52,885 nucleotides of DNA, from positions 1 through 52,885 of IMG/VR virus record IMGVR_UViG_3300016461_000001; one strand, 5' to 3'. The notes beneath the pieces are model-generated. The model searched no databases and had not been told where the DNA came from. It was given only the letters and a program-made list of their open reading frames with translations. A program made the translations under genes and the position numbers. Origin of the DNA: a virus. Positions 1 through 52,885 of the stretch are shown here, piece by piece. Numbering within the stretch: the stretch's first letter is position 1; each line of letters opens with the position of its first letter.

Positions 1-123
1 CGTAAACGCCTTGGCCCGGCGCGGCTGGAAGGCGCAGAAGCTCGGCGGCATCGGCGACCTCGCACACGGACATCTCCTCGGTCCGTTGAAAGCCGGCGCC
101 GAGACCATCGAGACGGCCGAAGC
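1..123. repeat. Terminal overlap copy A, identical to 52763-52885 (contig closes into a circle)
   Basis: Read directly: cgtaaacgccttggcccggcgcggctgg...gagacggccgaagc is at both window ends, 123/123 identical. It lies inside a coding frame that continues across the junction. Confidence 0.95.
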
Positions 124-5066: not shown

Positions 5067-5822
5067 ATGGATCGTGCGGCGCAGTTGTTGGAAGGCATCG
5101 ACGTCGACGCCCTGGTCGGGCTCGAGGTCGGGCCGCTCGATAAGGCGCTGGTCAAGCGGACCGAGGGGCGACAGATCTTCTACGCGGACTACGCGGACAG
5201 GGCCGCGCTACGGGCGGCCTCGGAAACCGACCCGAACGTCAACATCGACGCGATCCCCGAGATCGATTACGTGATCGCGCCGCTGCCGGAGAGGCTGCCG
5301 CGGCAGTTCGATTACGTCATCGCGTCACACGTCGGCGAACACGTCCCGGATCTGCTGGGCTGGTTGAAGACCCTGTTCGGATGGCTCAAGCCCGGCGGCG
5401 TCGTGATCCTGGCGCTCCCGGACAAGCGCTACACCTTCGACTGCCTGCGCGAGCACAGCACCATAGGGGAGCTGCTCGAGGCGCACGTCGAGAAGCGGGA
5501 GCGGCCGTCCTTCGCCTCGATCTATGACGGGTTCAGCAAGGCGACGCGGAACGACGTGTGCGCCCTCTGGGAAGGCGCGGATCCCGCAAAGTTCGAATAC
5601 CAGTTCCCTCGCGACGTCTCGTTCAGGATGGCGCGCGACGCGCACATCAATGGGACATATCGGGACTGTCACTGCTGGGTGTTCACAGCTCACGGGTTCC
5701 GCGCGCTGCTGGATGAAGCCCGAGATCTCGGCGTGATCGATTTCGATTGGGTCCGAGCGACCGATCCAGAGACCTACACGGTCGAGTTCTATGTCACGAT
5801 AAGACCGCGCGCCGCTCACTGA
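5067..5822 (+). CDS. Class I SAM-dependent methyltransferase (moron)
   Basis: VIASHVGEHVPDLLGWLKTLFGWLKPGGVVILALPDKRYTFD resembles Methyltransf_11/23-type proteins. RBS GGAGGA lies 8 nt upstream. Confidence 0.7.
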   Translation: MDRAAQLLEGIDVDALVGLEVGPLDKALVKRTEGRQIFYADYADRAALRAASETDPNVNIDAIPEIDYVIAPLPERLPRQFDYVIASHVGEHVPDLLGWLKTLFGWLKPGGVVILALPDKRYTFDCLREHSTIGELLEAHVEKRERPSFASIYDGFSKATRNDVCALWEGADPAKFEYQFPRDVSFRMARDAHINGTYRDCHCWVFTAHGFRALLDEARDLGVIDFDWVRATDPETYTVEFYVTIRPRAAH

Positions 5823-6027
5823 TCAAGGCCGCGAGAGTTCTGAAGGCAACCTTGGTGCCAACTTCAACGGCGAGCACCTTTTCGGTCAGATACTTAGCGC
5901 GGGCTTGATCGCCTTCGGCAAGCGCCGTCCTGATGTCCCTCACGACGCCGGCGATGAAGTTGGTATCGGGCATCAAGGCGGCTCCGCTGTAGTCTATGCC
6001 AAGCGCCGCAGCGCTTGACCGAGCCAT
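5794..6027 (-). CDS. Hypothetical helical protein (77 aa); second gene of the wHTH module that the IS disrupted
   Basis: Track ORF. Its ATG at 6027 sits 3 nt after the reconstructed stop (6031-6033) of the IS-split upstream gene. It overlaps the methyltransferase 3' end convergently by 29 nt. Confidence 0.35.
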   Translation of the reverse strand: MARSSAAALGIDYSGAALMPDTNFIAGVVRDIRTALAEGDQARAKYLTEKVLAVEVGTKVAFRTLAALISERRAVLS

Positions 6028-6030
6028 AGC

Positions 6031-6123
6031 TCACCGGCAGGAGAGACGGCTAGTGGGCTTGCTCGCGTCGATCTCAGCGAGGTGCTGTCGCCCCGCAGCA
6101 GTGATGAACCACGCTGAAATTTT
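6031..6123 (-). pseudogene. Detached 3' fragment of a small winged-helix gene split by the IS insertion
   Basis: Removing 6124-8745 joins 8746-8910 in frame to 6123-6031, giving ...GRKISAWFITAAGRQHLAEIDASKPTSRLSCR*. Confidence 0.5.
6116..6123. repeat. Target-site duplication GAAATTTT (left copy)
   Basis: The 8-mer is identical to 8738-8745 and lies immediately outside both IS termini. Confidence 0.85.
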
Positions 6124-6134
6124 GGTTATCCGGA

Positions 6135-7517
6135 TTATCGCGTGGAGTCGGCGAAGCCATCAAGCCAGCCCTTGGTGTGGAATGTGTTGCACCGATTGCA
6201 GAGATCAATCTGCGCAATCGGTGTGTACTGGCGTCCCCCAGCAGGGCCGTAGAAGCCTCGCCCCCATCCGATAAGGTGCAACGGGTCCATCTCTGCGACG
6301 GGGAACTGCCCCAGGCATTCCTCGCATACTGCCAGTCGGAGCTTGCCGCGGGTCGGCAGCGTCAGCGCGCGAGCCCGGATCGCGTCGAAACGGTAGCCGC
6401 GCCCGGCTCGGTTGACGATCTTGATCAGCCCGTTGGCGGCCTCGGTGTAGGCGTTGGTGTAGGGGTGATCGAAGTACGCGAAGACCTGCTCCCGCCATGC
6501 GTCGATCGTCTTGGCGACGCCCTTGAACTCATCCACCTCGCTCGGGATGCTCGTCTTCCAGCGGTCAAACATGGTCTCGGCTTCGTGCCGAGACCGCCGC
6601 TGTTCACCGCCCCAGATGTCGTAGAACGCTTCCTTCGTGTGCCAAGCCGCCGACAGCAGATCGTTGTTCTTGAGCATGCCGTCGAGGACGAACGCGCGCT
6701 GCGGGCTGAGGGTCTTGCCATGCGCGTGCAGCAGGCGGCGAGCCCGCCACGGGTTGCGCCGATCCTTGCCTTTGGCGCCCCGCCGCTGCCGATTGCGGAT
6801 CACATCGAGTGCAGCGTTCGCTTTGCTCTGAACGTGCCATCGGTCGGAGATGATAACGGCATCCGGCAGAAGGGCTTGCACCGCCTCGCGGTACGGCCCC
6901 CACATGTCGATAGTGACGATCTTGATGCGACGGCGGTTCGTCAGGATGCTGAGCCAGCGGTCAACCGCTGGCCGGTTCATGCTGTCGATCAAGTCGAGGA
7001 TGCGCCGCTCGCCGACATCCGTGAAGATGGTTCGCTTGCGGCCGAGAAGGTGCAGTTCGTCGATGCCGAGCGCAACCGGTGCCGTAGGCTTGTGCCGGGC
7101 CAACAGGCTCTCAATCTCCTCGTTGCAGATGTCCCGGATGGTCTTCTCGTCCAGACCGATCTCACGGGCGAGGTGGGCGTAGGGCCGGATCAGACCCTGC
7201 TCGCGGATGTGATCGGCGCATCGCCGCGTCATCCGCCGCTGCGGGTCCATGTCGGGCAAGGGCTGCATGAACGTCGCGCTACAGTCTCGGCAGCGGTAGC
7301 GCTGGACATCGACCGCGACGATGGTCCGGAGTCCGTGTACAGGAGCATCCACGTAATCGATGGCCCGTGTCCCATGTCGATAGGGCTGCCGGGTGGAACC
7401 GCACTTCGGACAGTGGGTGGGCTCGACATCGTAGCGGGCCACCAGCCGGTAGCCCTCTTGCGACCGTTCCACCTTCTCCACGGTCCAGTCGTCCAGATAG
7501 AGTGCGTTGACGGCCAT
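6135..7517 (-). CDS. ISL3 family transposase
   Basis: N-terminal zinc finger CPKCGS..CRDC. DDE landmarks LGIDELHL, VTIDMWGPY, YTNAYTEAANGLIKIVNR. The stop codon lies inside the terminal repeat. Confidence 0.9.
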   Translation of the reverse strand: MAVNALYLDDWTVEKVERSQEGYRLVARYDVEPTHCPKCGSTRQPYRHGTRAIDYVDAPVHGLRTIVAVDVQRYRCRDCSATFMQPLPDMDPQRRMTRRCADHIREQGLIRPYAHLAREIGLDEKTIRDICNEEIESLLARHKPTAPVALGIDELHLLGRKRTIFTDVGERRILDLIDSMNRPAVDRWLSILTNRRRIKIVTIDMWGPYREAVQALLPDAVIISDRWHVQSKANAALDVIRNRQRRGAKGKDRRNPWRARRLLHAHGKTLSPQRAFVLDGMLKNNDLLSAAWHTKEAFYDIWGGEQRRSRHEAETMFDRWKTSIPSEVDEFKGVAKTIDAWREQVFAYFDHPYTNAYTEAANGLIKIVNRAGRGYRFDAIRARALTLPTRGKLRLAVCEECLGQFPVAEMDPLHLIGWGRGFYGPAGGRQYTPIAQIDLCNRCNTFHTKGWLDGFADSTR

Positions 7518-7546
7518 GCTTCCTCGCTGGCCGGGCTATGTCAGAA

Positions 7547-7566
7547 CCGGATTACGATGTGGAGTC
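7547..7566. repeat. Internal direct copy of the left-end motif (CCGGATTAcgatgTGGAGTC), upstream of the transposase start
   Basis: 16/20 identical to 6130-6149 in the same orientation, about 30 nt upstream of the tnp ATG. Confidence 0.5.
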
Positions 7567-7648
7567 CGGCCACCCCATCTGTTAGTGCCCCGCCGGATGT
7601 GGCGGTTCGTTGATCCAATGGGCCACCTTGTTCGCGCATGCTGGCCTG

Positions 7649-8068
7649 CTATATTAAAGCTGTCCCCGCCGAAGGATGCGTCCGAGGCACCCCATCGGCT
7701 TCGGCCGGTGGGACCTCGCTCCCTTCAGGTTTCTCCTCGGCACAAGCGAGCAACCTAATTGCATTCAGAGCTTCCGCATCTGTCATATCGCCACGATTGA
7801 CAATGTACTGGCTATGGATCTCGTGAAGCACGCCGCGCAGACGTTCGTTATCGTCTTCTGCGTCACGCCATAGAGCGTCTGTAATATTGCACAGACCTAT
7901 AGCATCAATTGCAATTCGGATCGCACAAACGCCGTCCGTTAGCCAGTTTGCTGCATCTGTATCGCCCTCTTCGATGCGGTTTGCGAGGGCGCCTTGAAGG
8001 TGAAGGCTAAGATTTCTCAGCTTTTGAATGATGGGATCGCCCGTCTTCTCGGTCGCATGAAAGCTCAT
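7649..8068 (-). CDS. IS passenger ORF P3, hypothetical helical protein (139 aa)
   Basis: Track ORF. Its ATG is 1 nt after the P2 stop (TGAgATG). Low-G+C codon usage unlike the phage backbone. Confidence 0.6.
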   Translation of the reverse strand: MSFHATEKTGDPIIQKLRNLSLHLQGALANRIEEGDTDAANWLTDGVCAIRIAIDAIGLCNITDALWRDAEDDNERLRGVLHEIHSQYIVNRGDMTDAEALNAIRLLACAEEKPEGSEVPPAEADGVPRTHPSAGTALI

Positions 8069-8069
8069 C

Positions 8070-8291
8070 TCAGTGCTCCATGTTCAGAGCACCTGAGGTG
8101 CTCAGGAGAGACAGAGGCGTCAGGATGCTGCCGCCCTCAGCATTGAACCACTCCTCGTAGCCGTCCGGCTCGCAGTCAGCGCACCGCTCCTCAACGAGGG
8201 CGACGGCCTTCGGCAGATCGGGGTTGTCCAGCTTGTCGATGGTTCGCTCCGACATGCAGGCCGGGCAGCGTTGGACGATGAACCGCATCAT
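8070..8291 (-). CDS. IS passenger ORF P2, small zinc-ribbon protein (73 aa)
   Basis: MMRFIVQRCPACMSERTI...EERCADCEPDGYEEW has two CxxC pairs. GGAGG lies 10 nt upstream of the ATG at 8291. Confidence 0.6.
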   Translation of the reverse strand: MMRFIVQRCPACMSERTIDKLDNPDLPKAVALVEERCADCEPDGYEEWFNAEGGSILTPLSLLSTSGALNMEH

Positions 8292-8316
8292 GGGCGTTTC
8301 GCCTCCGGTCAGGATC

Positions 8317-8382
8317 CACACCTAAATCCGGATTGACGATAGCACGCCCGGTGCTAGTTTCAACACTCAAATCCGGATAGCC
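8317..8382. repeat. 66-bp IS-end-like module R1 (two ATCCGGAT palindromes bracketing promoter-like hexamers)
   Basis: 58/66 identical to 8672-8737. On the minus strand it reads TTGAAA-N16-TATCGT. The central palindrome is TAGCAC-gcccg-GTGCTA. Confidence 0.8.
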
Positions 8383-8621
8383 TCATTGAGTTTCGGCCAT
8401 AGGCAGACAACAGCATGAGGCGGTTCTGCTGGGAGTTCATCTGCCGGGATCAGGTTGCTCAAAGCCGTCATACTGGTGGCGAGAGCATTCCAGTCATCCC
8501 GGTTGACGGCGAGAGGTAGCCACTCATGGTAGCCGGTATTATCAACAAGCGCCCACGCTGAACGCACGACCTCCAGAATTGCATCGTATGCGGCCGAGTT
8601 GGCATTGACGGAATTTTCCAT
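8367..8621 (-). CDS. IS passenger ORF P1, hypothetical protein (84 aa)
   Basis: MENSVNANSAAYDAILEVVRSAWALVDNTGYHEWLPLAV... GGAG lies 7 nt before the ATG at 8621. The track gives a 100-aa version. The stop lies inside R1. Confidence 0.5.
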   Translation of the reverse strand: MENSVNANSAAYDAILEVVRSAWALVDNTGYHEWLPLAVNRDDWNALATSMTALSNLIPADELPAEPPHAVVCLWPKLNEAIRI

Positions 8622-8671
8622 CCCACTGCTCCATCTTAAGAGCATCTCAGTGCTCTGGCGCTTCGGCAACC

Positions 8672-8737
8672 CACACCGAAATCCGGATTGATGATAGAAC
8701 GTCTGATGCTACTTTCAACACTCAAATCCGGAAAGCC
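8672..8737. repeat. 66-bp IS-end module R2; its outer edge is the functional right terminus of the element
   Basis: Copy of R1. On the minus strand it reads TTGAAA-N16-TATCAT. It abuts the target duplication. Confidence 0.8.
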
Positions 8738-8910
8738 GAAATTTTACGGCCCGGGCCCCGCGCCGGCCGCGACACCACCAGCCCCAGCTTCCGCAGCGTC
8801 GGCATCGCCGACGGGTAGGCTTCGTGCCGCAGCCCCTGCGGGTAGAGCAGGCAGGCGCGGAGCGCGGCGAGCTGTCGGCCGCGGACGGGTGCGATCGGTT
8901 CGGACGGCAA
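8722..8910 (-). pseudogene. 5' part of a small winged-helix-like gene truncated by the IS (now ends ...GRKISAFRI* inside the IS end)
   Basis: LAALRACLLYPQGL...MPTLRKLGLVVSRPARGPGRKIS. The only start is a TTG at 8910. The reading frame runs into 8722-8745 (IS end plus duplication). Confidence 0.4.
8738..8745. repeat. Target-site duplication GAAATTTT (right copy)
   Basis: Identical to 6116-6123. Confidence 0.85.
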
Positions 8911-8920
8911 TTCCTCGGCC

Positions 8921-8941
8921 TGCTTACTATGTGCTTACCGG
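8921..8941 (+). repeat. Putative integrase arm-type site (left of core): TGCTTACTATGTGCTTACCGG
   Basis: 19/21 identical to 9152-9172. Further TGCTTACCG copies are at 9056-9065 and, inverted, at 8952-8960. Confidence 0.6.
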
Positions 8942-8977
8942 TCGTCAGTTTCGGTAAGCAAGCAGAGGGGTAAGTGT

Positions 8978-9022
8978 TGGTGCCGCAAGAGGGATTCGAA
9001 CCCCCGACCCCCTCATTACGAA
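8978..9022 (-). tRNA. Partial tRNA-Thr(CGU) 3' fragment (anticodon loop to CCA); probable attP core
   Basis: The reverse complement reads TTCGTAA-TGAGG-GGGTC-GGGGG-TTCGAAT-CCCTC-TTGCGGC-A-CCA. No matching 5' half: the anticodon-stem partner is absent upstream. Confidence 0.75.
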
Positions 9023-9151
9023 ACATGGGTTACCCAGCAAATTAGTTGACAGGACTGCTTACCGGCCTGCAGAAGCGTCGATCTGCGAGGGGTTTGTGTG
9101 CGCGTACCCTCTCATTAAGCGGACGAGACCGACCGCTCGGTTCGTCACCGC

Positions 9152-9172
9152 CGCTTACCATGTGCTTACCGG
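9152..9172 (+). repeat. Putative integrase arm-type site (right of core): CGCTTACCATGTGCTTACCGG
   Basis: Direct repeat of 8921-8941, ending 6 nt before the int ATG. Confidence 0.6.
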
Positions 9173-9178
9173 ACAGCG

Positions 9179-10444
9179 ATGCGCCTCACGAACCAGTCTG
9201 CCCTTGCCGTGCGGCTCCCCGCCGGGCGCGATCGGATCGTGGTGTTCGACGACGACCTCCCGGGCTTCGGGCTGAGCCTGAGCAAGGGCGGGTCCCGCAT
9301 GTGGGTTGTCCAGTACCGGAACGCACTCGGGCAATCGAAACGGGAATCGCTGGGCAAGGTCGGGCTGCTGTCTGCGTCCGATGCGCGCCGCGCTGCCGGC
9401 GAGCGGCTCGCCCGGGCCAAACTCGGCGAGGATCCGCACGCCGAGAAGGTGAAGGCGAAAGCCCGGGCGGCGGTCACGTTCGGCGCGGTGGTCGAGCCGT
9501 ATCTGGAGGCTGTTGGGCCCGGCCTGCGGCCAGCCTACCTCGCCGAGGCCGGCCGCTACCTGCGCACGACCTGGAAGCCGCTGCACAAGCTCCCGCTGCA
9601 CACCGTCGGGCGCCCCGAGATTACCGAGCACCTGACCAAGATCCGGAACGAGACTGGGCCGCACGCGGCAAATCGGGCTCGCGCCGCGCTGTCGGCGCAC
9701 TTCGCCTGGCTGGTCGGAACGGGCAAGGCCGAGACGAATCCGGTCATGGGTGTGCCGAAGCCCGCGCCCGAGGTGCGCCGCGCCCGGGTGCTGGCCGAGG
9801 ACGAGATCGCCCGGGTGCTGAAGGCCTGTCGCAACGACGACTTCGGACGGATCGTGCGCCTGCTGCTCCTCACCGGGCAACGCCGCGACGAGGTGGCCGA
9901 CATGGCTTGGACCGAGGTGGATCTGGCCGCGGGCCTGTGGTCGCTACCGGGCGAGCGCGTGAAGAATGGGCAGGACCACGACGTGCCGTTGTCGGCCCCT
10001 GCCCTGCAGATCCTCGCCGGAACAGAGCGCATCGAGGGACGACCGCTGGTGTTCGGCCAGGGCGACGGGGGGTTTCAGGGCTTCTCCCGGGCGAAGGCGA
10101 CGCTCGACAAACGCTCTGGCGTCACCGGATGGCGGCTGCACGATCTGCGCCGCACGGCTGCCACCGTCATGGGCGACCGCCTGAAGGTGCTCCCGCACGT
10201 GATCGAGGCCGTGCTGAACCACATCTCCGGCCACAAGGCGGGCGTGGCCGGCATCTACAACCGGGCGCTCTACGCCACGGAGAAGCGCGAGGCCCTAGAC
10301 GCGCTCGGCGCCTATCTCGCAGGCCTTAAGCCAAGCATCGAGATCGCCTCGGCGGATGCCGAGCCGGCGCTCGCTAAGCCGAAGAAGCGTCGGGCCGCGG
10401 CCGTCCTTGCACATCCGGCGAAGCGTCGCGGCGCTGAGTCCTAG
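9179..10444 (+). CDS. int: Tyrosine integrase (P4-like, N-terminal Arm/DUF4102-type domain)
   Basis: LPGFGLSLSKGGSRMWVVQYR at the N-terminus. Catalytic landmarks LLLLTGQRRDEV, HDLRRTAAT, VLNHISG, GIYNRALY. Adjacent to the tRNA fragment. Confidence 0.9.
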   Translation: MRLTNQSALAVRLPAGRDRIVVFDDDLPGFGLSLSKGGSRMWVVQYRNALGQSKRESLGKVGLLSASDARRAAGERLARAKLGEDPHAEKVKAKARAAVTFGAVVEPYLEAVGPGLRPAYLAEAGRYLRTTWKPLHKLPLHTVGRPEITEHLTKIRNETGPHAANRARAALSAHFAWLVGTGKAETNPVMGVPKPAPEVRRARVLAEDEIARVLKACRNDDFGRIVRLLLLTGQRRDEVADMAWTEVDLAAGLWSLPGERVKNGQDHDVPLSAPALQILAGTERIEGRPLVFGQGDGGFQGFSRAKATLDKRSGVTGWRLHDLRRTAATVMGDRLKVLPHVIEAVLNHISGHKAGVAGIYNRALYATEKREALDALGAYLAGLKPSIEIASADAEPALAKPKKRRAAAVLAHPAKRRGAES

Positions 10445-12500: not shown

Positions 12501-12733
12501 GCGGGCGACCTCGCTGCTCTCGCGTGACGCCGCTCGGTACGCTCCGTCCGCTGCGGCAGACCCGGCAGCATCGCCTCGATCTCGGCGGCGCGGCCGTCGA
12601 GAAGGGCGGCCCGCGCATCCTCGTTGACGGCCTCCTGCCGGCGAATGGCGGCCCACTTCCGGGCGCGCTCCGCCTCCTGCCGGTAGACCGCGATATTCCG
12701 CCGAAGGTCGGCTTCGGTGTGGGGCTGGGTCAT
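12497..12733 (-). CDS. Hypothetical coiled-coil protein (78 aa)
   Basis: MTQPHTEADLRRNIAVYRQEAERARKWAAIRRQEA... ATGA overlap with the upstream gene. Confidence 0.5.
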   Translation of the reverse strand: MTQPHTEADLRRNIAVYRQEAERARKWAAIRRQEAVNEDARAALLDGRAAEIEAMLPGLPQRTERTERRHARAARSPA

Positions 12734-13464
12734 GCGACAAGCTCCAATTGGGCAGGGATAGGGGTCCAGACTGCGCCGCACTGTTTCGCGTCCCAAGCGG
12801 CCGCCATCCGCTGGGCGTGTGTCTCAGGTGCGTGCTGCCCTTCAGCCTCGCCGATCAGGTCGCCGCCATTCCGGTGGCCGCGGTTGTGGTTCTGGGCCAC
12901 GTCGGTGCTGTCGAGGCTGGCGAACGGCCAGCGCTTGCCGGCGAGCTGCATGCCGCGGAGCATGTGAAGCCAGGGCAGTCGGCGATGACGCGCGGTCAGG
13001 GCCTCAAAGGCTTCATCAATCCGCCTGCACCATGGGTCCGAGAGGACGACGCGATATTCTGCCGTTGATCCTAGACACACTCGCGGGAAGCTGTCGCAGA
13101 GGTCCAAAAGCCGACTGACATCTTCATCAAGATGCCAAACTGGAGCACCACGATGACCAAAAGGCCATTCTTTGACCAAAGCTTCTTGAAGCTGGATGCC
13201 GGCGTCGATGACATCAGGGATCACAGCCCAGGTCGTGGGATAATCCAACCAACGATCGCACCAAGCGTAATATGCCGGCCAGTCGGTCTCTCTTCCTTTC
13301 TTCCAAAATGAATAGGCGCCGTTATCAAGCATTACGCTCTGGCCGATTTTGTGGGCGGCCTCGACCTGCTCTGGCCTCGCGTGCGAAACACAGAAGTGCT
13401 TACCAGCAAGGCTCATTAGTACGCGATTTGGCGTGATTGGGAGTCCGTGATGATGCACGGTCAT
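12730..13464 (-). CDS. TGT-fold DpdA-like protein (candidate 7-deazaguanine DNA transglycosylase), 244 aa
   Basis: MTVHHHGLPITPN..., VMLDNGAYSFWKKG, WLHMLRG, FASLDSTDVAQN resemble the DSGAF / HxxG / S.DS landmarks I recall for DpdA/TGT-like proteins. Start at 13464, not the track start. Confidence 0.45.
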   Translation of the reverse strand: MTVHHHGLPITPNRVLMSLAGKHFCVSHARPEQVEAAHKIGQSVMLDNGAYSFWKKGRETDWPAYYAWCDRWLDYPTTWAVIPDVIDAGIQLQEALVKEWPFGHRGAPVWHLDEDVSRLLDLCDSFPRVCLGSTAEYRVVLSDPWCRRIDEAFEALTARHRRLPWLHMLRGMQLAGKRWPFASLDSTDVAQNHNRGHRNGGDLIGEAEGQHAPETHAQRMAAAWDAKQCGAVWTPIPAQLELVA

Positions 13465-13574
13465 TGCACGTGCCCCCAGTTTTTGCCGCTCATGATGTCG
13501 TTGATGGCGTGGACCGAAACGCCGTGAGCCGCCGCGACTGCGGAGCGCTTCTCGCCGCCCTCCCATTCTCGTCC
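13461..13574 (-). pseudogene. Start-less alternate-frame segment encoding an HTH-like peptide (frameshifted gene end or endonuclease remnant)
   Basis: It encodes GREWEGGEKRSAVAAAHGVSVHAINDIMSGKNWGHVQ*. There is no start codon in frame. Its TGA overlaps the downstream ATG as ATGA. Confidence 0.35.
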
Positions 13575-13717
13575 TCACCCGCCTTCACGGCGGCCAGGGC
13601 ATCGGTGGCGGGGAGAGCGGGGACGCGCCGGCGGCGGTCGGACCAGACCGACACGCCGACGATCGCCACGAAGCCGACGAAGGCGGCGAGGATCCCGAGG
13701 GTGAGGGAGCCGGTCAT
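13490..13717 (-). CDS. 75-aa single-TM protein (the C-terminal half may really continue in another frame)
   Basis: MTGSLTLGILAAFVGFVAIVGVSVWSDRRRR... ATGA overlap upstream. Confidence 0.45.
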   Translation of the reverse strand: MTGSLTLGILAAFVGFVAIVGVSVWSDRRRRVPALPATDALAAVKAGEDENGRAARSAPQSRRLTAFRSTPSTTS

Positions 13718-14481
13718 GCCACGGCTCCGAGCCCGGCATCGATGTTCCGCTCCTCGACCGTGAAGGTGACGGCGACGACCCACGGGTTGCGGAGCCAAGC
13801 GCCCTCGCCGTTGATGCCATCCCAGAGCAGCCAGAAGGCCCGGACAGGATGCTGGGCGTTGATCAAGCCTGGGATGCCGAAGTCCGAGTGCTCCGGCGTG
13901 CGCAGATCCTGGATGCCCTCAGCGATCGCGTCGGCCGGGCTCATGTCGTTCAGCGGCTCGACGCAGATCGCCGTCACCAGGAGGGTGAGGCGACTCGCCC
14001 AGCGCGGCATAAACAGCGACGGCCGCCAGATGCCCTCGGCTCCGCTCAGCAGATCCGGCAGCCACGTATGCCACTTCGCGCCTGGGCAGCGCGCGTAGTT
14101 GTACGACGGGCCGGCCCCCTCGTCCTCACCGTCCCAGGCTTCGATGTCGTGGCAGTCGCCAGTTGCCCGGTAGGCGATCTGCGGACCGTTGCTGCTGCTA
14201 CCGGTCTGCCAGGTCTCCTTGACCCAGAGGCGATCGCCCACCTGCCACGACAGGCGCGGCTTCAGCTCGGCGTCGCGCAGGTCGTGCCAGCGCATGCCCT
14301 TGTCGCGGAAGTGCCAGTCGTAGCCGGCCGTATCGCTTCGGCCGAACTCGGCAACCGCGCCGACCTTCGACAGGCGGGTGAGCGGCCGCCGGGTCTGCGT
14401 CTTGCCGGTGCCGGGCTTGCGCGCCTCGCGGAGCAGAGCCTGGACCATCGGCGCGCTAAACAGGATGGGGCGATCCATCAC
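13714..14481 (-). CDS. Conserved prophage protein, ASCH/PUA-like
   Basis: ILFSAPMVQALL..GKTQTRRP...GDRLWVKETW...PSLFMPRWASRLTLLVTAICVEPLNDMSPADAIAEG matches a common ASCH-like phage family. Confidence 0.55.
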   Translation of the reverse strand: MMDRPILFSAPMVQALLREARKPGTGKTQTRRPLTRLSKVGAVAEFGRSDTAGYDWHFRDKGMRWHDLRDAELKPRLSWQVGDRLWVKETWQTGSSSNGPQIAYRATGDCHDIEAWDGEDEGAGPSYNYARCPGAKWHTWLPDLLSGAEGIWRPSLFMPRWASRLTLLVTAICVEPLNDMSPADAIAEGIQDLRTPEHSDFGIPGLINAQHPVRAFWLLWDGINGEGAWLRNPWVVAVTFTVEERNIDAGLGAVA

Positions 14482-51000: not shown

Positions 51001-52885
51001 GCCATGCCCTGGAGAAGCGGATCGGCGAGCCGCTGTCCGACCTGATCGACCGGCACGCCGCGGAGCTTGGCCCGCTGGACTATGACCCGCAGCGCGGCGA
51101 CGCGGGCGAGGGCTTCGCCGAGTGGGTGCGCACGGCCATGTTCAACCCGGCGGCCGGGCAGCGGCAGGCGCCCGGGTTTGCGCAGGCCTTCCGGGCGCTG
51201 ATGCAGCGGGAGGCGCCGGATCTGCTGGAGCGCCTCGACCAGGCCGTGGCCGCCCATCAGGCCTACCTCGCCGCGCCGACGGGCGAGAAGCTCGCGACCA
51301 TGGTGCGCAAGCCCGAGGACGAGGGTGTGATTCAGTCCATTCGCCGGGACGGCCTACCGGCGACGGTCGGCCTGTACCTGTCCCGGGCCTACGAGGCGGT
51401 GTTCGACGACAAGGCGCCCGTGGCCCGGGCCGTCCGATCCATGACGCGGGCGATCTACGCCGCGACTGGCGAGCGGGTCCGGCTGGAGGGTGGCGAGAAC
51501 CCCGAGAACCTCGTGCGCCTGTTCGCCCGGGCCAACCAGGCGGCGGTGCAGGACATGCGCGAGGGCGTGCGGCCCTACCATGGCATCGCGCCGGAGGGCC
51601 CGTCGATGTCCGACGCGCTGGCGACCGCCACCGGTCAGCCCGGGATCCTCGGCCGCTGGGACGCCGGCAAGGTCGAGGAGTTCGACCGCTACCTCGTCGC
51701 CCGGCGCGCGGAGGTGCTCTACCGCCGCGTCGCCGACGGCACGCTGGAGCGACGGCCGATCGCGCTGTCGCCGGAGGAGGTGCGGACCGCGGTCGCCGAG
51801 GCCGAGGCCGCGAACCCGACCTTCCGGGCTGGGGCCGACCAGATCCACCAGTTCACCCGGCAGCTCCTGCGCAAGCAGTACGAGGGCGGGCTGATCGACG
51901 CCGACCTGTACGCGCGCCTGATGGACGAGGAGTTCTATGTGCCCCTGTACCGGCACATGGATGAGCGCCCCGAAGGTCTCGGCGGCGGATCCGGTGGCTC
52001 GGACGGGCCGGGCACGGTCGACACCATCAAGCGCCTGCGCGGCTCGGACCGCGACGTGATCCCGCCGACGCAGAGCCTGATGACCCAGGCCTTCCTCGTG
52101 AACCGGACGCTCCAGCACAACGACATCATCAAGAGCTTCGTCGCCCTGGCACGGGCGGCGCGCGAGGCCGGCGCCGCCGGCGTGGGCCGGATCCTGGAGG
52201 AGATCCCGCCGACGCAGATGCTCGGCAAGCGCTTCGATCTCGCGGAGGCGGTGCAGAGCGCGGCGCGCGCGGCGGGCACGTCCGGCGACGATCTCGCGGT
52301 GCTGAACGGAGCGATCACCGACGTGTTCGGCGAGGACCCGATCATGGCGACGATCTTCCGGGCCGAGCCCACGGGCAAGCGCGGCGAGCCGATCGTCTTC
52401 TACAAGGACGGCGGGCAGCTCCGCGCGGTTCGCCTCCAGGCCCGAGACGAGGGGCTCGCCCTCTACGAGACCCTGTCCGCGCTGCCGCCGATGGCCCGGG
52501 ACTTCGCGCTGAAGTTCGGCGCCACGACGTCGAGCCTGCTGCGGACCGGCATCGTCACGAACCCCACCTTCGCGATCACGAACTTCTTCCGCGATCAGCT
52601 CGCGGTCGGCGTGCTCCGGTCCGACTATGTGCCCTTCGTTTCCGGCGCAAAGGGCATCCGGAGCGAATGGAATCAGGATCAGTGGGCGCAACGCTACGCC
52701 TACGGCGGCGGTGTCTCGCCCGGCGCTGGCTCGGCTGGTCTGTCGGAGTTGATCGACCGCGACGTAAACGCCTTGGCCCGGCGCGGCTGGAAGGCGCAGA
52801 AGCTCGGCGGCATCGGCGACCTCGCACACGGACATCTCCTCGGTCCGTTGAAAGCCGGCGCCGAGACCATCGAGACGGCCGAAGC
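48045..52885 (+). CDS. Giant virion-internal/ejection (polyvalent-like) protein, N-terminal part; no stop before the window end, continues at base 2 (2179 aa in total once the overlap is collapsed)
   Basis: ATG at 48045, 14 nt after the SLT gene. I translated the frame by hand to 52885 with no stop. The track lists no plus-strand ORF in this frame, as expected for an ORF that runs off the end. Confidence 0.8.
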   Translation, partial: MADSAAPASLQDDGPNPFADRLAADPSLGEVSLAERARLNAVEAAYRGTIAGSADLAEFKRALPDQYERITKDLARYETMRGFDGPLEGAVALAGQLGGGMTSPEALITRVPGVNSLVERRVGGVAGRVLGAAGAQAAVQGAANPAIQASEIQSGLRKNYSLGENLAAAAGGAVLGGALHGAGEAVGALARSGRAAKVDTDALARARIAEQQAAESRNMAALAAEDPALRPGGEQGDIGQPISEPAARPDAGRTEAGIPVTEQDQALSPRADLQKAPSNMQADMQAAPEAPAMDAPAVAADPEAAAARAAADVPREEPAAPAMEQRPAVMDESAVPAETPAAPEEGYRLQISPFEKSTETRKNFDIVKDGESIGTAVVDVKGKEAYFDNIYLHGLDFGVDPVGTIGLREVRKMARQFLAEHPEIESITGNRVSGARKTIRGGAETQITVRRPKPQEAPTPEAAGAQPNPEATTPATLAAAVNTSSSGKPLSLSQFIARNGGLALDGEARARDLNRVFVPGGGPLARAKGHSIDGFWREAMIEHGYLPPDADGMAARNIEKELFDALDREQRGQRQYSAQDRAPETGGADNQTREIEAQARKITAAAKKVGIRPGDVDQRTMMDAAEMLWRGDADDPLVALEHAMMSGEAPRGRQMEQSVDGLQFMKRPQPSMLARLAAALDKEAALRPERDRLGGLLRDARAERDPIADLEAALARNLDRPATAEQSPEALLADIEARIADAKAEAVTPAQDDAITALERALSENLKADAPTRGDPAAALERALAEVPAPSRAVERPTALEARVLRAIEATPDGKGLGKDIWDVRERLPGMSEPDFVRAMHGLQAKRLTNLSQYSDPRSVRGQQGIDVGAGDRHIVSVQPEGRAALSGRDDLRFRNREPAAAGGEPGRPAPPDAVAGAAAPADTPAAEPLRSLQQQAQDLADALDVPLRSGRVKGGKDALGQFRNSDEVMRVRNVADFETVAHAAGHALEKRIGEPLSDLIDRHAAELGPLDYDPQRGDAGEGFAEWVRTAMFNPAAGQRQAPGFAQAFRALMQREAPDLLERLDQAVAAHQAYLAAPTGEKLATMVRKPEDEGVIQSIRRDGLPATVGLYLSRAYEAVFDDKAPVARAVRSMTRAIYAATGERVRLEGGENPENLVRLFARANQAAVQDMREGVRPYHGIAPEGPSMSDALATATGQPGILGRWDAGKVEEFDRYLVARRAEVLYRRVADGTLERRPIALSPEEVRTAVAEAEAANPTFRAGADQIHQFTRQLLRKQYEGGLIDADLYARLMDEEFYVPLYRHMDERPEGLGGGSGGSDGPGTVDTIKRLRGSDRDVIPPTQSLMTQAFLVNRTLQHNDIIKSFVALARAAREAGAAGVGRILEEIPPTQMLGKRFDLAEAVQSAARAAGTSGDDLAVLNGAITDVFGEDPIMATIFRAEPTGKRGEPIVFYKDGGQLRAVRLQARDEGLALYETLSALPPMARDFALKFGATTSSLLRTGIVTNPTFAITNFFRDQLAVGVLRSDYVPFVSGAKGIRSEWNQDQWAQRYAYGGGVSPGAGSAGLSELIDRDVNALARRGWKAQKLGGIGDLAHGHLLGPLKAGAETIETAE
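52763..52885. repeat. Terminal overlap copy B, identical to 1-123
   Basis: Same as copy A. Confidence 0.95.

Follow-up and report, generated by a model that had tools for sequence, protein, structure and literature searches.

Small orphan genes of phage type as passengers of a chimeric ISL3-family insertion sequence in a temperate phage genome

P1, P2 and P3 are three small adjacent genes at positions 7,649 to 8,621 of a viral DNA of 52,885 nucleotides (IMG/VR record IMGVR_UViG_3300016461_000001, positions 1 to 52,885), the whole of which is hereafter called the window. An initial annotation had singled them out as a candidate accessory system. We found that they are passengers of an insertion sequence (IS) of the ISL3 family, itself a chimera formed recently from two sister ISs, and that they assort independently of one another in related loci. 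On balance, we favor the view that the locus consists of phage accessory cassettes riding an ISL3 transporter IS, i.e. a chimeric IS with independent, moron-like cargo genes that would be expressed from the left inverted repeat (IRL) of the element. The structural account of the element is well supported, and the functions that we propose below for its cargo are put forward with low confidence.

Results and Discussion

P1, P2 and P3 lie inside a mobile unit of the ISL3 family

The transposable unit spans window positions 6124-8737 (2,614 bp) and contains P1, P2 and P3 together with a transposase gene (Table 1). It is bracketed by a perfect target-site duplication (TSD) of 8 bp, GAAATTTT, and bounded by inverted repeats (IRs), GGYTWTCCGGATT…, which are present at both ends of the element. 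Read as inverted repeats, these ends are GGTTATCCGGATT… at one side and …AATCCGGAAAGCC at the other, and the arms 6117-6136 and 8725-8744 are 85% complementary. The ends GGTTATCCGGATT… and GGCTTTCCGGATTT… are conserved in the related loci L004, L023, L026, L030 and L031. The transposase comprises the DDE_Tnp_ISL3, Zn_ribbon_ISL3 and HTH_Tnp_ISL3 domains, with Pfam matches to DDE_Tnp_ISL3 (PF01610, 8.2e-53), Zn_ribbon_ISL3 (PF14690, 4.6e-9) and PF13542 (2.9e-5), and a match to the NCBIfam model transpos_ISL3 (NF033550, 1.6e-83) that exceeds the model cut-off. The hallmarks of the ISL3 family that we used are an ISL3-type DDE transposase, terminal IRs of 15-39 bp, an 8-bp TSD and passenger open reading frames (ORFs) inside the unit; all of them were found here, the passengers lying within the part bounded by IRs and TSD.

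Sister elements have TSDs of their own, namely TGACGTTC in L031, GATAAAAG in L026 (Microvirga arsenatis) and CGTATAT (7 bp) in L030, and those of L031, L004, L023 and L030 are independent insertions, each with its cargo within the IRs. Since all three ORFs lie inside the unit bounded by the IRs and the 8-bp TSD, these observations confirm the proposal of the initial annotation that they are passengers of an IS on a temperate phage. A published ISL3 element with two passenger genes, ISPst2, has the IRs GGGTATCCGGAATTTCTGGTTGAT / GGGTATACGGATTTAATGGTTGAT, and ISL3 elements such as ISPst2 generate AT-rich duplications of 8 bp (PMC6305408); the IRs and the AT-rich 8-bp TSDs of the window element are similar to those of ISPst2.

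The element landed in an AT-rich 8-mer that has a phage methyltransferase gene on one side and the attP/integrase end of the phage on the other, and the insertion site of the L031 element falls within a segment absent from the window phage. A GTDB scan with the transposase gave only three relatives, DNA searches of PLSDB, one near and one distant, gave no match, and an Rfam scan of positions 5900-9200 returned a chance-level match only.

A shorter IS (6124-7578) lying beside native phage genes was considered and rejected, first because its would-be inner end (7545-7575) is a direct, not an inverted, copy of the distal end, and second because the TSD brackets 6124-8737 and the outer end is confirmed in sister elements. 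This extra IR-like site, located 5' of the transposase gene in the orientation of the distal end, also occurs in L023 (~2380-2402) and L030 (~7250-7270), and it is absent from L031 and L026, whose cargo couples directly to the transposase gene. Because of that orientation, the cargo segment running from the IRL to 7545-7575 formally resembles a transposase-less mini-element abutting the transposase gene.

Table 1. Coordinates of the element and of its parts in the window
Feature	Position	Strand	Remarks
Left TSD copy, GAAATTTT	6116..6123	.	direct reading, flank print-out
Terminal inverted repeat, transposase-distal end, GGTTATCCGGATTATCGCGTGGAGTC	6124..6149	+	inverted repeat with 8725-8744; same end in L031 and L026
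ISL3-family DDE transposase, 460 aa	6135..7517	-	Pfam, NCBIfam; codons ~1-18 from IS-B, remainder from IS-A
IR-like site just upstream of transposase gene, GGCCGGACTCCACATCGTAATCCGG	7545..7575	-	direct repeat of the distal end; conserved in L011, L023 and L030
Junction module downstream of P3 core	7579..7719	-	conserved hairpin region and relic 3' end of another cassette ORF; encodes the unconserved P3 tail
P3, 139 aa, acidic, helical	7649..8068	-	conserved core residues ~10-111, two motif modules
Conserved leader/junction of ~50 nt, …CCTGAGCACCTCAGGTGCTCTGAACATGGAGCACTGAgATG	8066..8117	-	P2 stop, P3 Shine-Dalgarno sequence and start, alternative predicted hairpins, one burying the Shine-Dalgarno sequence
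P2, 73 aa, Zn-ribbon-like	8070..8291	-	CPAC at residues 9-12, CADC at 37-40; last ~15 residues leader-encoded
Inner IS left-end copy (IRL of IS-B)	8316..8382	-	two TCCGGATTT sites flanking TTGAAA-16-TATCGT; identity switches from IS-A to IS-B at 8383/8382
P1, 84 aa	8367..8621	-	ATG at 8621, stop at 8367-8369; codons 1-80 of the 187-aa ORF of IS-A, plus four codons (AIRI) and stop from the inner IRL
Diverged leader copy before P1, AGAGCActgagaTGCTCTtaagatGGAGCAgtgggATG	8619..8665	-	repeat and folding comparison
Outer IS left end (IRL of IS-A)	8671..8737	-	two TCCGGATTT sites flanking TTGAAA-16-TATCAT
Right TSD copy, GAAATTTT	8738..8745	.	direct reading, flank print-out

The element is a recent chimera of two sister ISs

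One sister, IS-A, is found at a different site in L031, a viral contig of 57 kb that is a relative of the window phage, and is arranged as IRL, P1long (an ORF of 187 aa), transposase gene (tnp) and right inverted repeat (IRR). In the other, IS-B, the parts follow one another as IRL, P2, leader, P3, junction, tnp and IRR; L004 carries it as IRL'-P2-P3-tnp, nested behind a further left end, one with two unrelated ORFs. Window positions 8740-8383 differ from IS-A of L031 by 1 mismatch in 358, and positions 8382-7446 differ from IS-B of L004 by 1 mismatch in 937. Starting at 7465, it again matches L031, with 1 mismatch (7370) among the positions checked to 7200, while L004 diverges, so that the return from IS-B to IS-A occurs between 7466 and 7460, about 55 nt into the transposase ORF. 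As judged from these identity blocks, the window element is a recent chimera of the two sister ISs, and it is for this reason that the 67-bp left-end module is present twice (8316-8382 and 8671-8737; the two copies are 88% identical). The initial annotation had credited P1 with its own copy of a promoter-like module; there are indeed two copies, but the second one is the terminal repeat of an IS and not a dedicated P1 promoter.

In the simplest history, IS-B inserted into P1long of IS-A after codon 80, and homologous recombination between the two transposase genes then deleted the interval between them, to yield the arrangement IRL-P1(truncated)-IRL'-P2-P3-tnp-IRR. The first 80 of the 187 residues of P1long in L031 are identical to those of P1. 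In consequence, P1 was truncated, and the members of the trio have no joint evolutionary history. Therefore, the 84-aa P1 gene has the length, the start and the stop initially described, but it is a truncated gene, not a whole native one.

The three genes are under purifying selection and assort independently

Each of P1, P2 and P3 has a small protein family. When they were compared with homologues from other loci (NG86 method), the ratios of non-synonymous to synonymous substitution rates (dN/dS) were 0.05-0.24 for P1, 0.08-0.21 for P2 and 0.05-0.15 for P3, the synonymous sites being often saturated. In addition, a GGAG or GGAGG motif, resembling a Shine-Dalgarno (SD) sequence, lies 7-10 nt upstream of each of the three starts. 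The dN/dS values of 0.05-0.24 indicate that P1, P2 and P3 are real coding genes subject to purifying selection, and together with the SD motifs they make it unlikely that the ORFs are untranslated, an outcome that the initial annotation had reckoned with.

It might be argued that the ORFs are decaying, functionless hitch-hikers captured by IS recombination, as P1 is truncated, the tail of P3 and the segment 7579-7719 are relic or junction DNA, and the families are tiny (an exhaustive profile search for P3 with a hidden Markov model, in 1.84 billion representatives, gave 12 proteins at E<=0.001, most of which match just one of its two motifs). We regard such decay as very unlikely, because purifying selection is strong in the three families at saturated or high synonymous divergence, because starts and SD sequences are intact, and because the truncated P1 retains its entire conserved domain of ~76 aa, for which stand-alone homologues of 79-86 aa exist. 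In different loci, this P1 domain is joined to differing C-terminal extensions. Each of the two motif modules of P3 turns up on its own in further mosaic proteins of phage-like character.

Conservation does not extend to the last ~28 residues of P3, which are read from a junction module of non-coding type. This module is 84.5% identical to L008 8693-8834, as compared with 70% for the P3 coding sequence. Its consensus hairpin has two compensated pairs, and its relic corresponds to the 3' end of a 71-aa cassette ORF that is intact in L030 and L033.

With respect to composition, the phage without the element has a G+C content of 69.6%, and the transposase gene one of 63.9%, with a G+C content at third codon positions (GC3) of 0.81. 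All three genes had been described as low in G+C relative to both. This description holds for P1 (54.5%, GC3 0.57) and P3 (53.6%, GC3 0.51), whereas P2 (62.6%, GC3 0.82) is at the level of the transposase gene; all three are below the phage, a foreign composition of the kind looked for in phage morons. The three proteins are acidic, with isoelectric points (pI) of 4.37 for P1, 4.38 for P2 and 4.64 for P3 (24 D+E versus 12 K+R). The features initially reported for P2 (73 aa, with the CPAC and CADC motifs) were found as described, and so were the length and the acidity of P3, the helical character of which agrees with the four helices of a low-confidence AlphaFold2 (AF2) model.

The assortment of the genes was established by tblastn searches and module maps over about 20 related loci, plus L043 (Table 2). 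P1 occurs without P2 and P3 in L031, P2 without P3 in L023, L030 and L043, and P3-like genes without P2 in L008, L012 and L029, while an unrelated 85-aa ORF separates P2 from P3 in L011 and L025. As far as gene content and order can tell, P1, P2 and P3 are independent cassettes and not one system. The small, tightly coupled gene set of the initial annotation is therefore not sustained, the trio being a recent product of two ISs whose genes assort independently. In IS-free phage contigs, the P1-like and P3-like genes have a GC3 of 0.58-0.62, versus ~0.7-0.9 for the phages. P1 and P3 are thus low-GC3 members of a pool of small acidic ORFs that circulates between Methylobacterium-type temperate phages and ISL3 elements, and the ORFs of this pool are often joined by a common leader of ~50 nt.

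Table 2. Arrangement of the modules in related loci
Arrangement	Loci
IRL-P1long-tnp	L031
IRL-X-IRL'-P2-P3-tnp	L004
IRL-P2-85aa-P3like-84aa-tnp	L011; L025 has the same start and no transposase before the contig end
IRL-P2-leader-P1like (161 aa)-…-tnp, transposase 50% identical	L030, L043
IRL-P2like-54-64-100aa-tnp, transposase 48% identical	L023
Third ISL3 lineage, transposase 33% identical, divergent P1-like gene inside the boundaries	L017, L020-L022
P3-like gene, no IS	L008, L012, L029
P1-like gene, no IS	L015, L033, L035, L037

Predicted promoters in the left ends and a portable leader between the genes

Each 67-bp copy of the left end contains one inward promoter match of the sigma-70 type, and a scan of the region gave 3 promoter-like sites where 1.0 was expected. 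In nine aligned left ends, which represent four transposase lineages including that of Microvirga, the tip, the -35 box, the start of the -10 box and the second TCCGGATTT site are invariant. We propose that transcription would start at this conserved inward promoter within each IRL copy, in which case the cargo would lie in the leader of the transposase transcript.

The leader that precedes P3 reads …GCCGCGGCAACACCTGAGCACCTCAGGTGCTCTGAACATGGAGCACTGAgATG and, within the window, it is confined to the interior of the IS. In other loci, it precedes P3-like, P1-like, 85-aa, 76-aa and 93-aa ORFs (copies at L008 7963-8003, L012 488-528, L025 2202-2234 and 3698-3742, L029/L033 5963-6003, and L040 4031-4062). 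It encodes the C-terminal "…STSGAL(N/I)MEH" of any upstream ORF, plus its stop, the next SD sequence and the next start. The leader includes a perfect 7-3-7 palindrome (GAGCACC TCA GGTGCTC), and in the predicted fold GGUGCUC pairs with GGAGCAC, thereby burying the SD sequence, an alternative upstream hairpin being formed by GAGCACC and GGUGCUC. The P2 stop and the P3 start read TGAgATG, as initially noted, and the translation of P3 would be coupled to that of P2 through this overlap, aided by the hairpin that otherwise buries the P3 SD sequence. Possible roles of such a leader are those of an operator, of a switch for translational coupling or of a hotspot for recombination.

According to a different interpretation, which was the lead hypothesis of the initial annotation, P2 and P3, with or without P1, form an IS-borne module for defence, such as a toxin-antitoxin or an abortive-infection system. 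In its favor, the ORFs are small and lie next to each other, P2 and P3 are translationally coupled, and they are located on mobile DNA; furthermore, P3 gave one noise-level match in PADLOC, to LmuC (E 0.032, 11.9 bits, 39 residues), which is its only match in that database. Nevertheless, we regard this interpretation as highly improbable, for the following reasons. First, the pairing of P2 with P3 is not conserved (Table 2). Second, TGAgATG is a property of the portable junction that couples many unrelated ORF pairs, and it is therefore no evidence that P2 and P3 cooperate. Third, no toxin, antitoxin or defence family was matched in Pfam, NCBIfam, PADLOC or PHROGs. Fourth, P2 and P3 are both acidic. 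Fifth, no association of the homologues with defence islands, a check that had been suggested at the outset, was found; the contexts that could be judged are nearly all phage genomes or IS interiors, the sole exception being L026, a sister IS in a chromosomal setting.

P2 is tied to the left end of the IS

P2 directly follows the IS left end wherever the upstream DNA is readable, i.e. in the window, L004, L023, L025, L030 and L043, whereas L011 contains just the 3' end of P2; moreover, P2 was never found in an IS-free phage context among the loci examined. These findings bring up the possibility that the cargo serves the IS, P2 especially acting as a Zn-ribbon DNA-binding regulator on the TCCGGATTT sites to tune the IRL promoter or transposition, and the upstream ORFs gating the translation of the transposase. 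In keeping with this possibility, the position of P2 is maintained across two transposase lineages that are 48-49% identical, and its GC3 equals that of the transposase gene, unlike those of P1 and P3. P2 also bears a weak likeness to the N-terminal Zn ribbon of the transposase (BLASTP of the pair, E 0.005; hhalign, E 7.6e-4 over 38 columns). In addition, the stop of the ORF upstream of the transposase gene in L031 (P1long) overlaps the transposase ATG as TGATG, and in another ISL3 lineage an ORF of 78-88 aa, similar to Arc and other ribbon-helix-helix (RHH) proteins, overlaps the transposase start.

On the other side, the hhalign probability is just 25%, and Pfam Zn_ribbon_ISL3 (PF14690) did not match P2 at E<=1. 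Sister elements with a 99%-identical (L031) or a 67%-identical (L026) transposase lack P2 and yet show fresh TSDs, so that P2 is dispensable for transposition. Between IS lineages, the synonymous divergence (pS) of P2 is 0.19-0.28, versus 0.57-0.60 for the transposases (48-49% amino-acid identity), a discrepancy from which the IRL-P2 block seems to have been exchanged between lineages. Lastly, a pI of 4.4 is unusual in a DNA binder. Taking both sides into account, we consider it unlikely that the cargo as a whole serves the IS.

Possible functions of the cargo, and the case against our reading

Returning to accessory cassettes carried by a transporter IS, we tentatively propose that P1 and P3 belong to the small accessory (moron-like) proteins of phages and act by binding proteins of the host or of the phage, with anti-defence, superinfection exclusion and host takeover as examples of such roles. 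For P2, a role as a Zn-ribbon regulator linked to the IS is a possible alternative, a suggestion that we make with similarly low confidence.

Several results weigh against this reading, its functional part in particular. First, P1, P2 and P3 gave no match at E<0.03 in Pfam, NCBIfam, PADLOC or PHROGs. Second, Foldseek comparisons of the P1 and P3 models with PDB and BFVD gave nothing better than E 0.27, the hits being generic helical hairpins. Confidence in the models themselves is no more than moderate (pLDDT 59 for P3 and 66 for P1), so that a fold relationship could have been missed. Third, the promoter assignments are consensus matches only, and the folding z-scores of the leader are weak (-0.8 to -2.6), which makes its structure a hypothesis. 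Fourth, no terminator-like site was detected between P3 and the transposase gene; for want of a terminator after P3, the cargo may not form an autonomous unit in the classical moron sense. Fifth, the order of events (nested insertion, then recombination) is deduced from the identity blocks, and other recombination routes would lead to the same product. Sixth, the reconstructed empty target site had no match in viral contigs.

Profile searches of PDB sequences likewise gave nothing below E 0.5 for either P1 or P3. Hence, the statement of the initial annotation that no family is recognizable for P1-P3 has stood up to profile, PDB-sequence and Foldseek searches, and its decision to assign no function is consistent with the absence of matches to families, structures and defence databases. 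Family searches with ten further cargo ORFs of the sister elements gave nothing useful, except that a phage domain of unknown function was matched once and that the 78-aa ORF showed a weak similarity to Arc.

Related elements and the host phage genome

Another ISL3 lineage, with a transposase that is ~33% identical, was observed in several different prophages (L017 3862-6300, also L020, L021 and L022; L008 3097-5688). The Arc/RHH-like ORF mentioned above belongs to this lineage, the cargo of which is variable and divergent, with a P1-like gene in L017 and L020-22 and four other small ORFs in L008; the L021 element has a duplicated end. L015, a contig of Methylobacterium ajmalii, has an 80-nt fragment of an IS end (5090-5168) and a P1-like gene (5986-6302), with no transposase within 6 kb, and it may represent either a remnant that lacks the transposase or a cargo-bearing derivative of miniature size. 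By eye only, we noticed a DUF305-like HH…E motif in an IS cargo ORF of L030 (~6770-6990), and a P3-like gene just downstream of an IS110-like transposase in L029 (4126-5253).

The ends of the window (1-123 and 52763-52885) are 123 identical bases, which suggests that the window is a complete phage genome of ~52.76 kb, either terminally redundant or circular, and more than a prophage fragment. ARAGORN found no complete tRNA in the window. A stretch of ~60 nt (~8978-9038, minus strand) resembles the 3' part of a tRNA, with an anticodon arm, a GGTTCGAATCC T-loop and an acceptor end with CCA; it adjoins the integrase gene (9179-10444) and is flanked by the repeats GCTTACYATGTGCTTACCGG at 8922-8941 and 9153-9172. 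This stretch is probably the attP core with the integrase arm sites. A second island of low G+C, at 12900-13550 (minimum 0.52), overlies an ORF of roughly 240-280 aa (12730-13578, minus strand, GC3 0.62), and the adjacent 13567-13732 is 97% identical to 3940-4105 of L033, an otherwise unrelated viral contig; this island looks like another horizontally moving module.

The source metagenome-assembled genome (GCA_937864545.1, contig CALMJW010000063.1, L001) is labelled 'uncultured Variovorax sp.' at NCBI. The named cargo homologues are from Methylobacterium and the closest named relative of the transposase is from Microvirga, and the assignment of the phage contig to Variovorax may be a binning artefact.

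Comparison with known systems and significance

Similarly to the ISL3 transporter ISs (ISPst2 and the ISPpu12/IS1411 group), the window element has a DDE_Tnp_ISL3 transposase with an N-terminal Zn ribbon and a helix-turn-helix (HTH) domain, IRs of the GGGTATCCGGAATTT… type, AT-rich 8-bp TSDs, and extra ORFs inside the IRs that are mobile with the element (for ISPst2, see PMC6305408). It differs from them in that its cargo lies upstream of the transposase gene, in its leader; in that this cargo consists of small orphan ORFs of phage type, and not of regulators, permeases or metal-resistance genes; in that its left end was duplicated through the nesting of two ISs; and in that the cargo varies between near-identical copies, most of which were found in phage genomes. 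What is unusual here is the combination of upstream cargo, small phage-type orphan ORFs, differing cargo in near-identical ISs, a common leader junction and a mostly phage location.

Phage morons and mosaic boundary sequences are known as small genes of foreign composition with their own promoters, and as short junctions common to unrelated genes, with an exchange of modules driven by recombination. The window genes are like them in being small and of foreign composition, in lying between phage genes near a prophage end, and in having a promoter-like sequence each; the short conserved junction common to unrelated neighbours is also consistent with recombination-driven module exchange. Unlike morons, the unit owes its delivery to a transposase and has IRs and a TSD, and no terminator was detected after its cargo. 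Unlike phage junction sequences, the junction also carries SD, stop and start signals, together with a predicted hairpin that buries the SD sequence.

P2 further recalls the regulators derived from truncated transposases (IS1 InsA, IS911 OrfA), as it is a small protein of the Zn-ribbon kind whose gene occupies the left end of the IS, ahead of the transposase gene, and as it faintly resembles the Zn ribbon of the transposase. In contrast to these regulators, P2 is acidic, its similarity is not significant at the family level, and its gene is a separate one, absent from some active sister elements and devoid of any frameshift relation to the transposase gene. Integron cassettes are another point of comparison, with their arrays of short ORFs of unknown function that lack promoters, are exchanged between elements and have a short structured sequence recurring at their joints. 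In the window, however, the recurrent element is 5' of the ORF and includes translation signals, and the exchange is better explained by homologous recombination. We rejected integron-like cassettes proper, since an IntI integrase, attI and attC are all missing; the only tyrosine recombinase in the vicinity is of the phage integrase type and has an Arm-DNA-bind_3 domain.

The prevailing view is that ISs seldom occur in phage genomes and do harm there, and the passengers reported for ISL3 elements have mostly been regulators, permeases and metal-resistance genes. In the present case, ISs that are nearly identical and reside in related phages carry differing sets of small phage-type orphan ORFs under selection, including a nested-IS chimera caught soon after its formation. 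The locus also illustrates that adjacency and translational coupling inside a mobile element are not by themselves the sign of a functional system. As a bolder extension, which we judge quite unlikely, related ISL3 elements, mainly in temperate phages of Methylobacterium-like hosts, might constitute a cassette-exchange platform built on the leader and the IRL promoter, in which small ORFs, swapped by recombination, would be expressed at once and coupled to the ORF upstream, in which anti-defence or host-takeover genes would be shuttled between phages, and of which P2 would be the Zn-ribbon regulator. If the cargo modulates phage-host conflict, these ISs would allow accessory genes to move from one phage to another without depending on phage recombination. 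Even otherwise, the locus provides three clean orphan families (P1, P2 and P3) and a portable leader that is directly testable.

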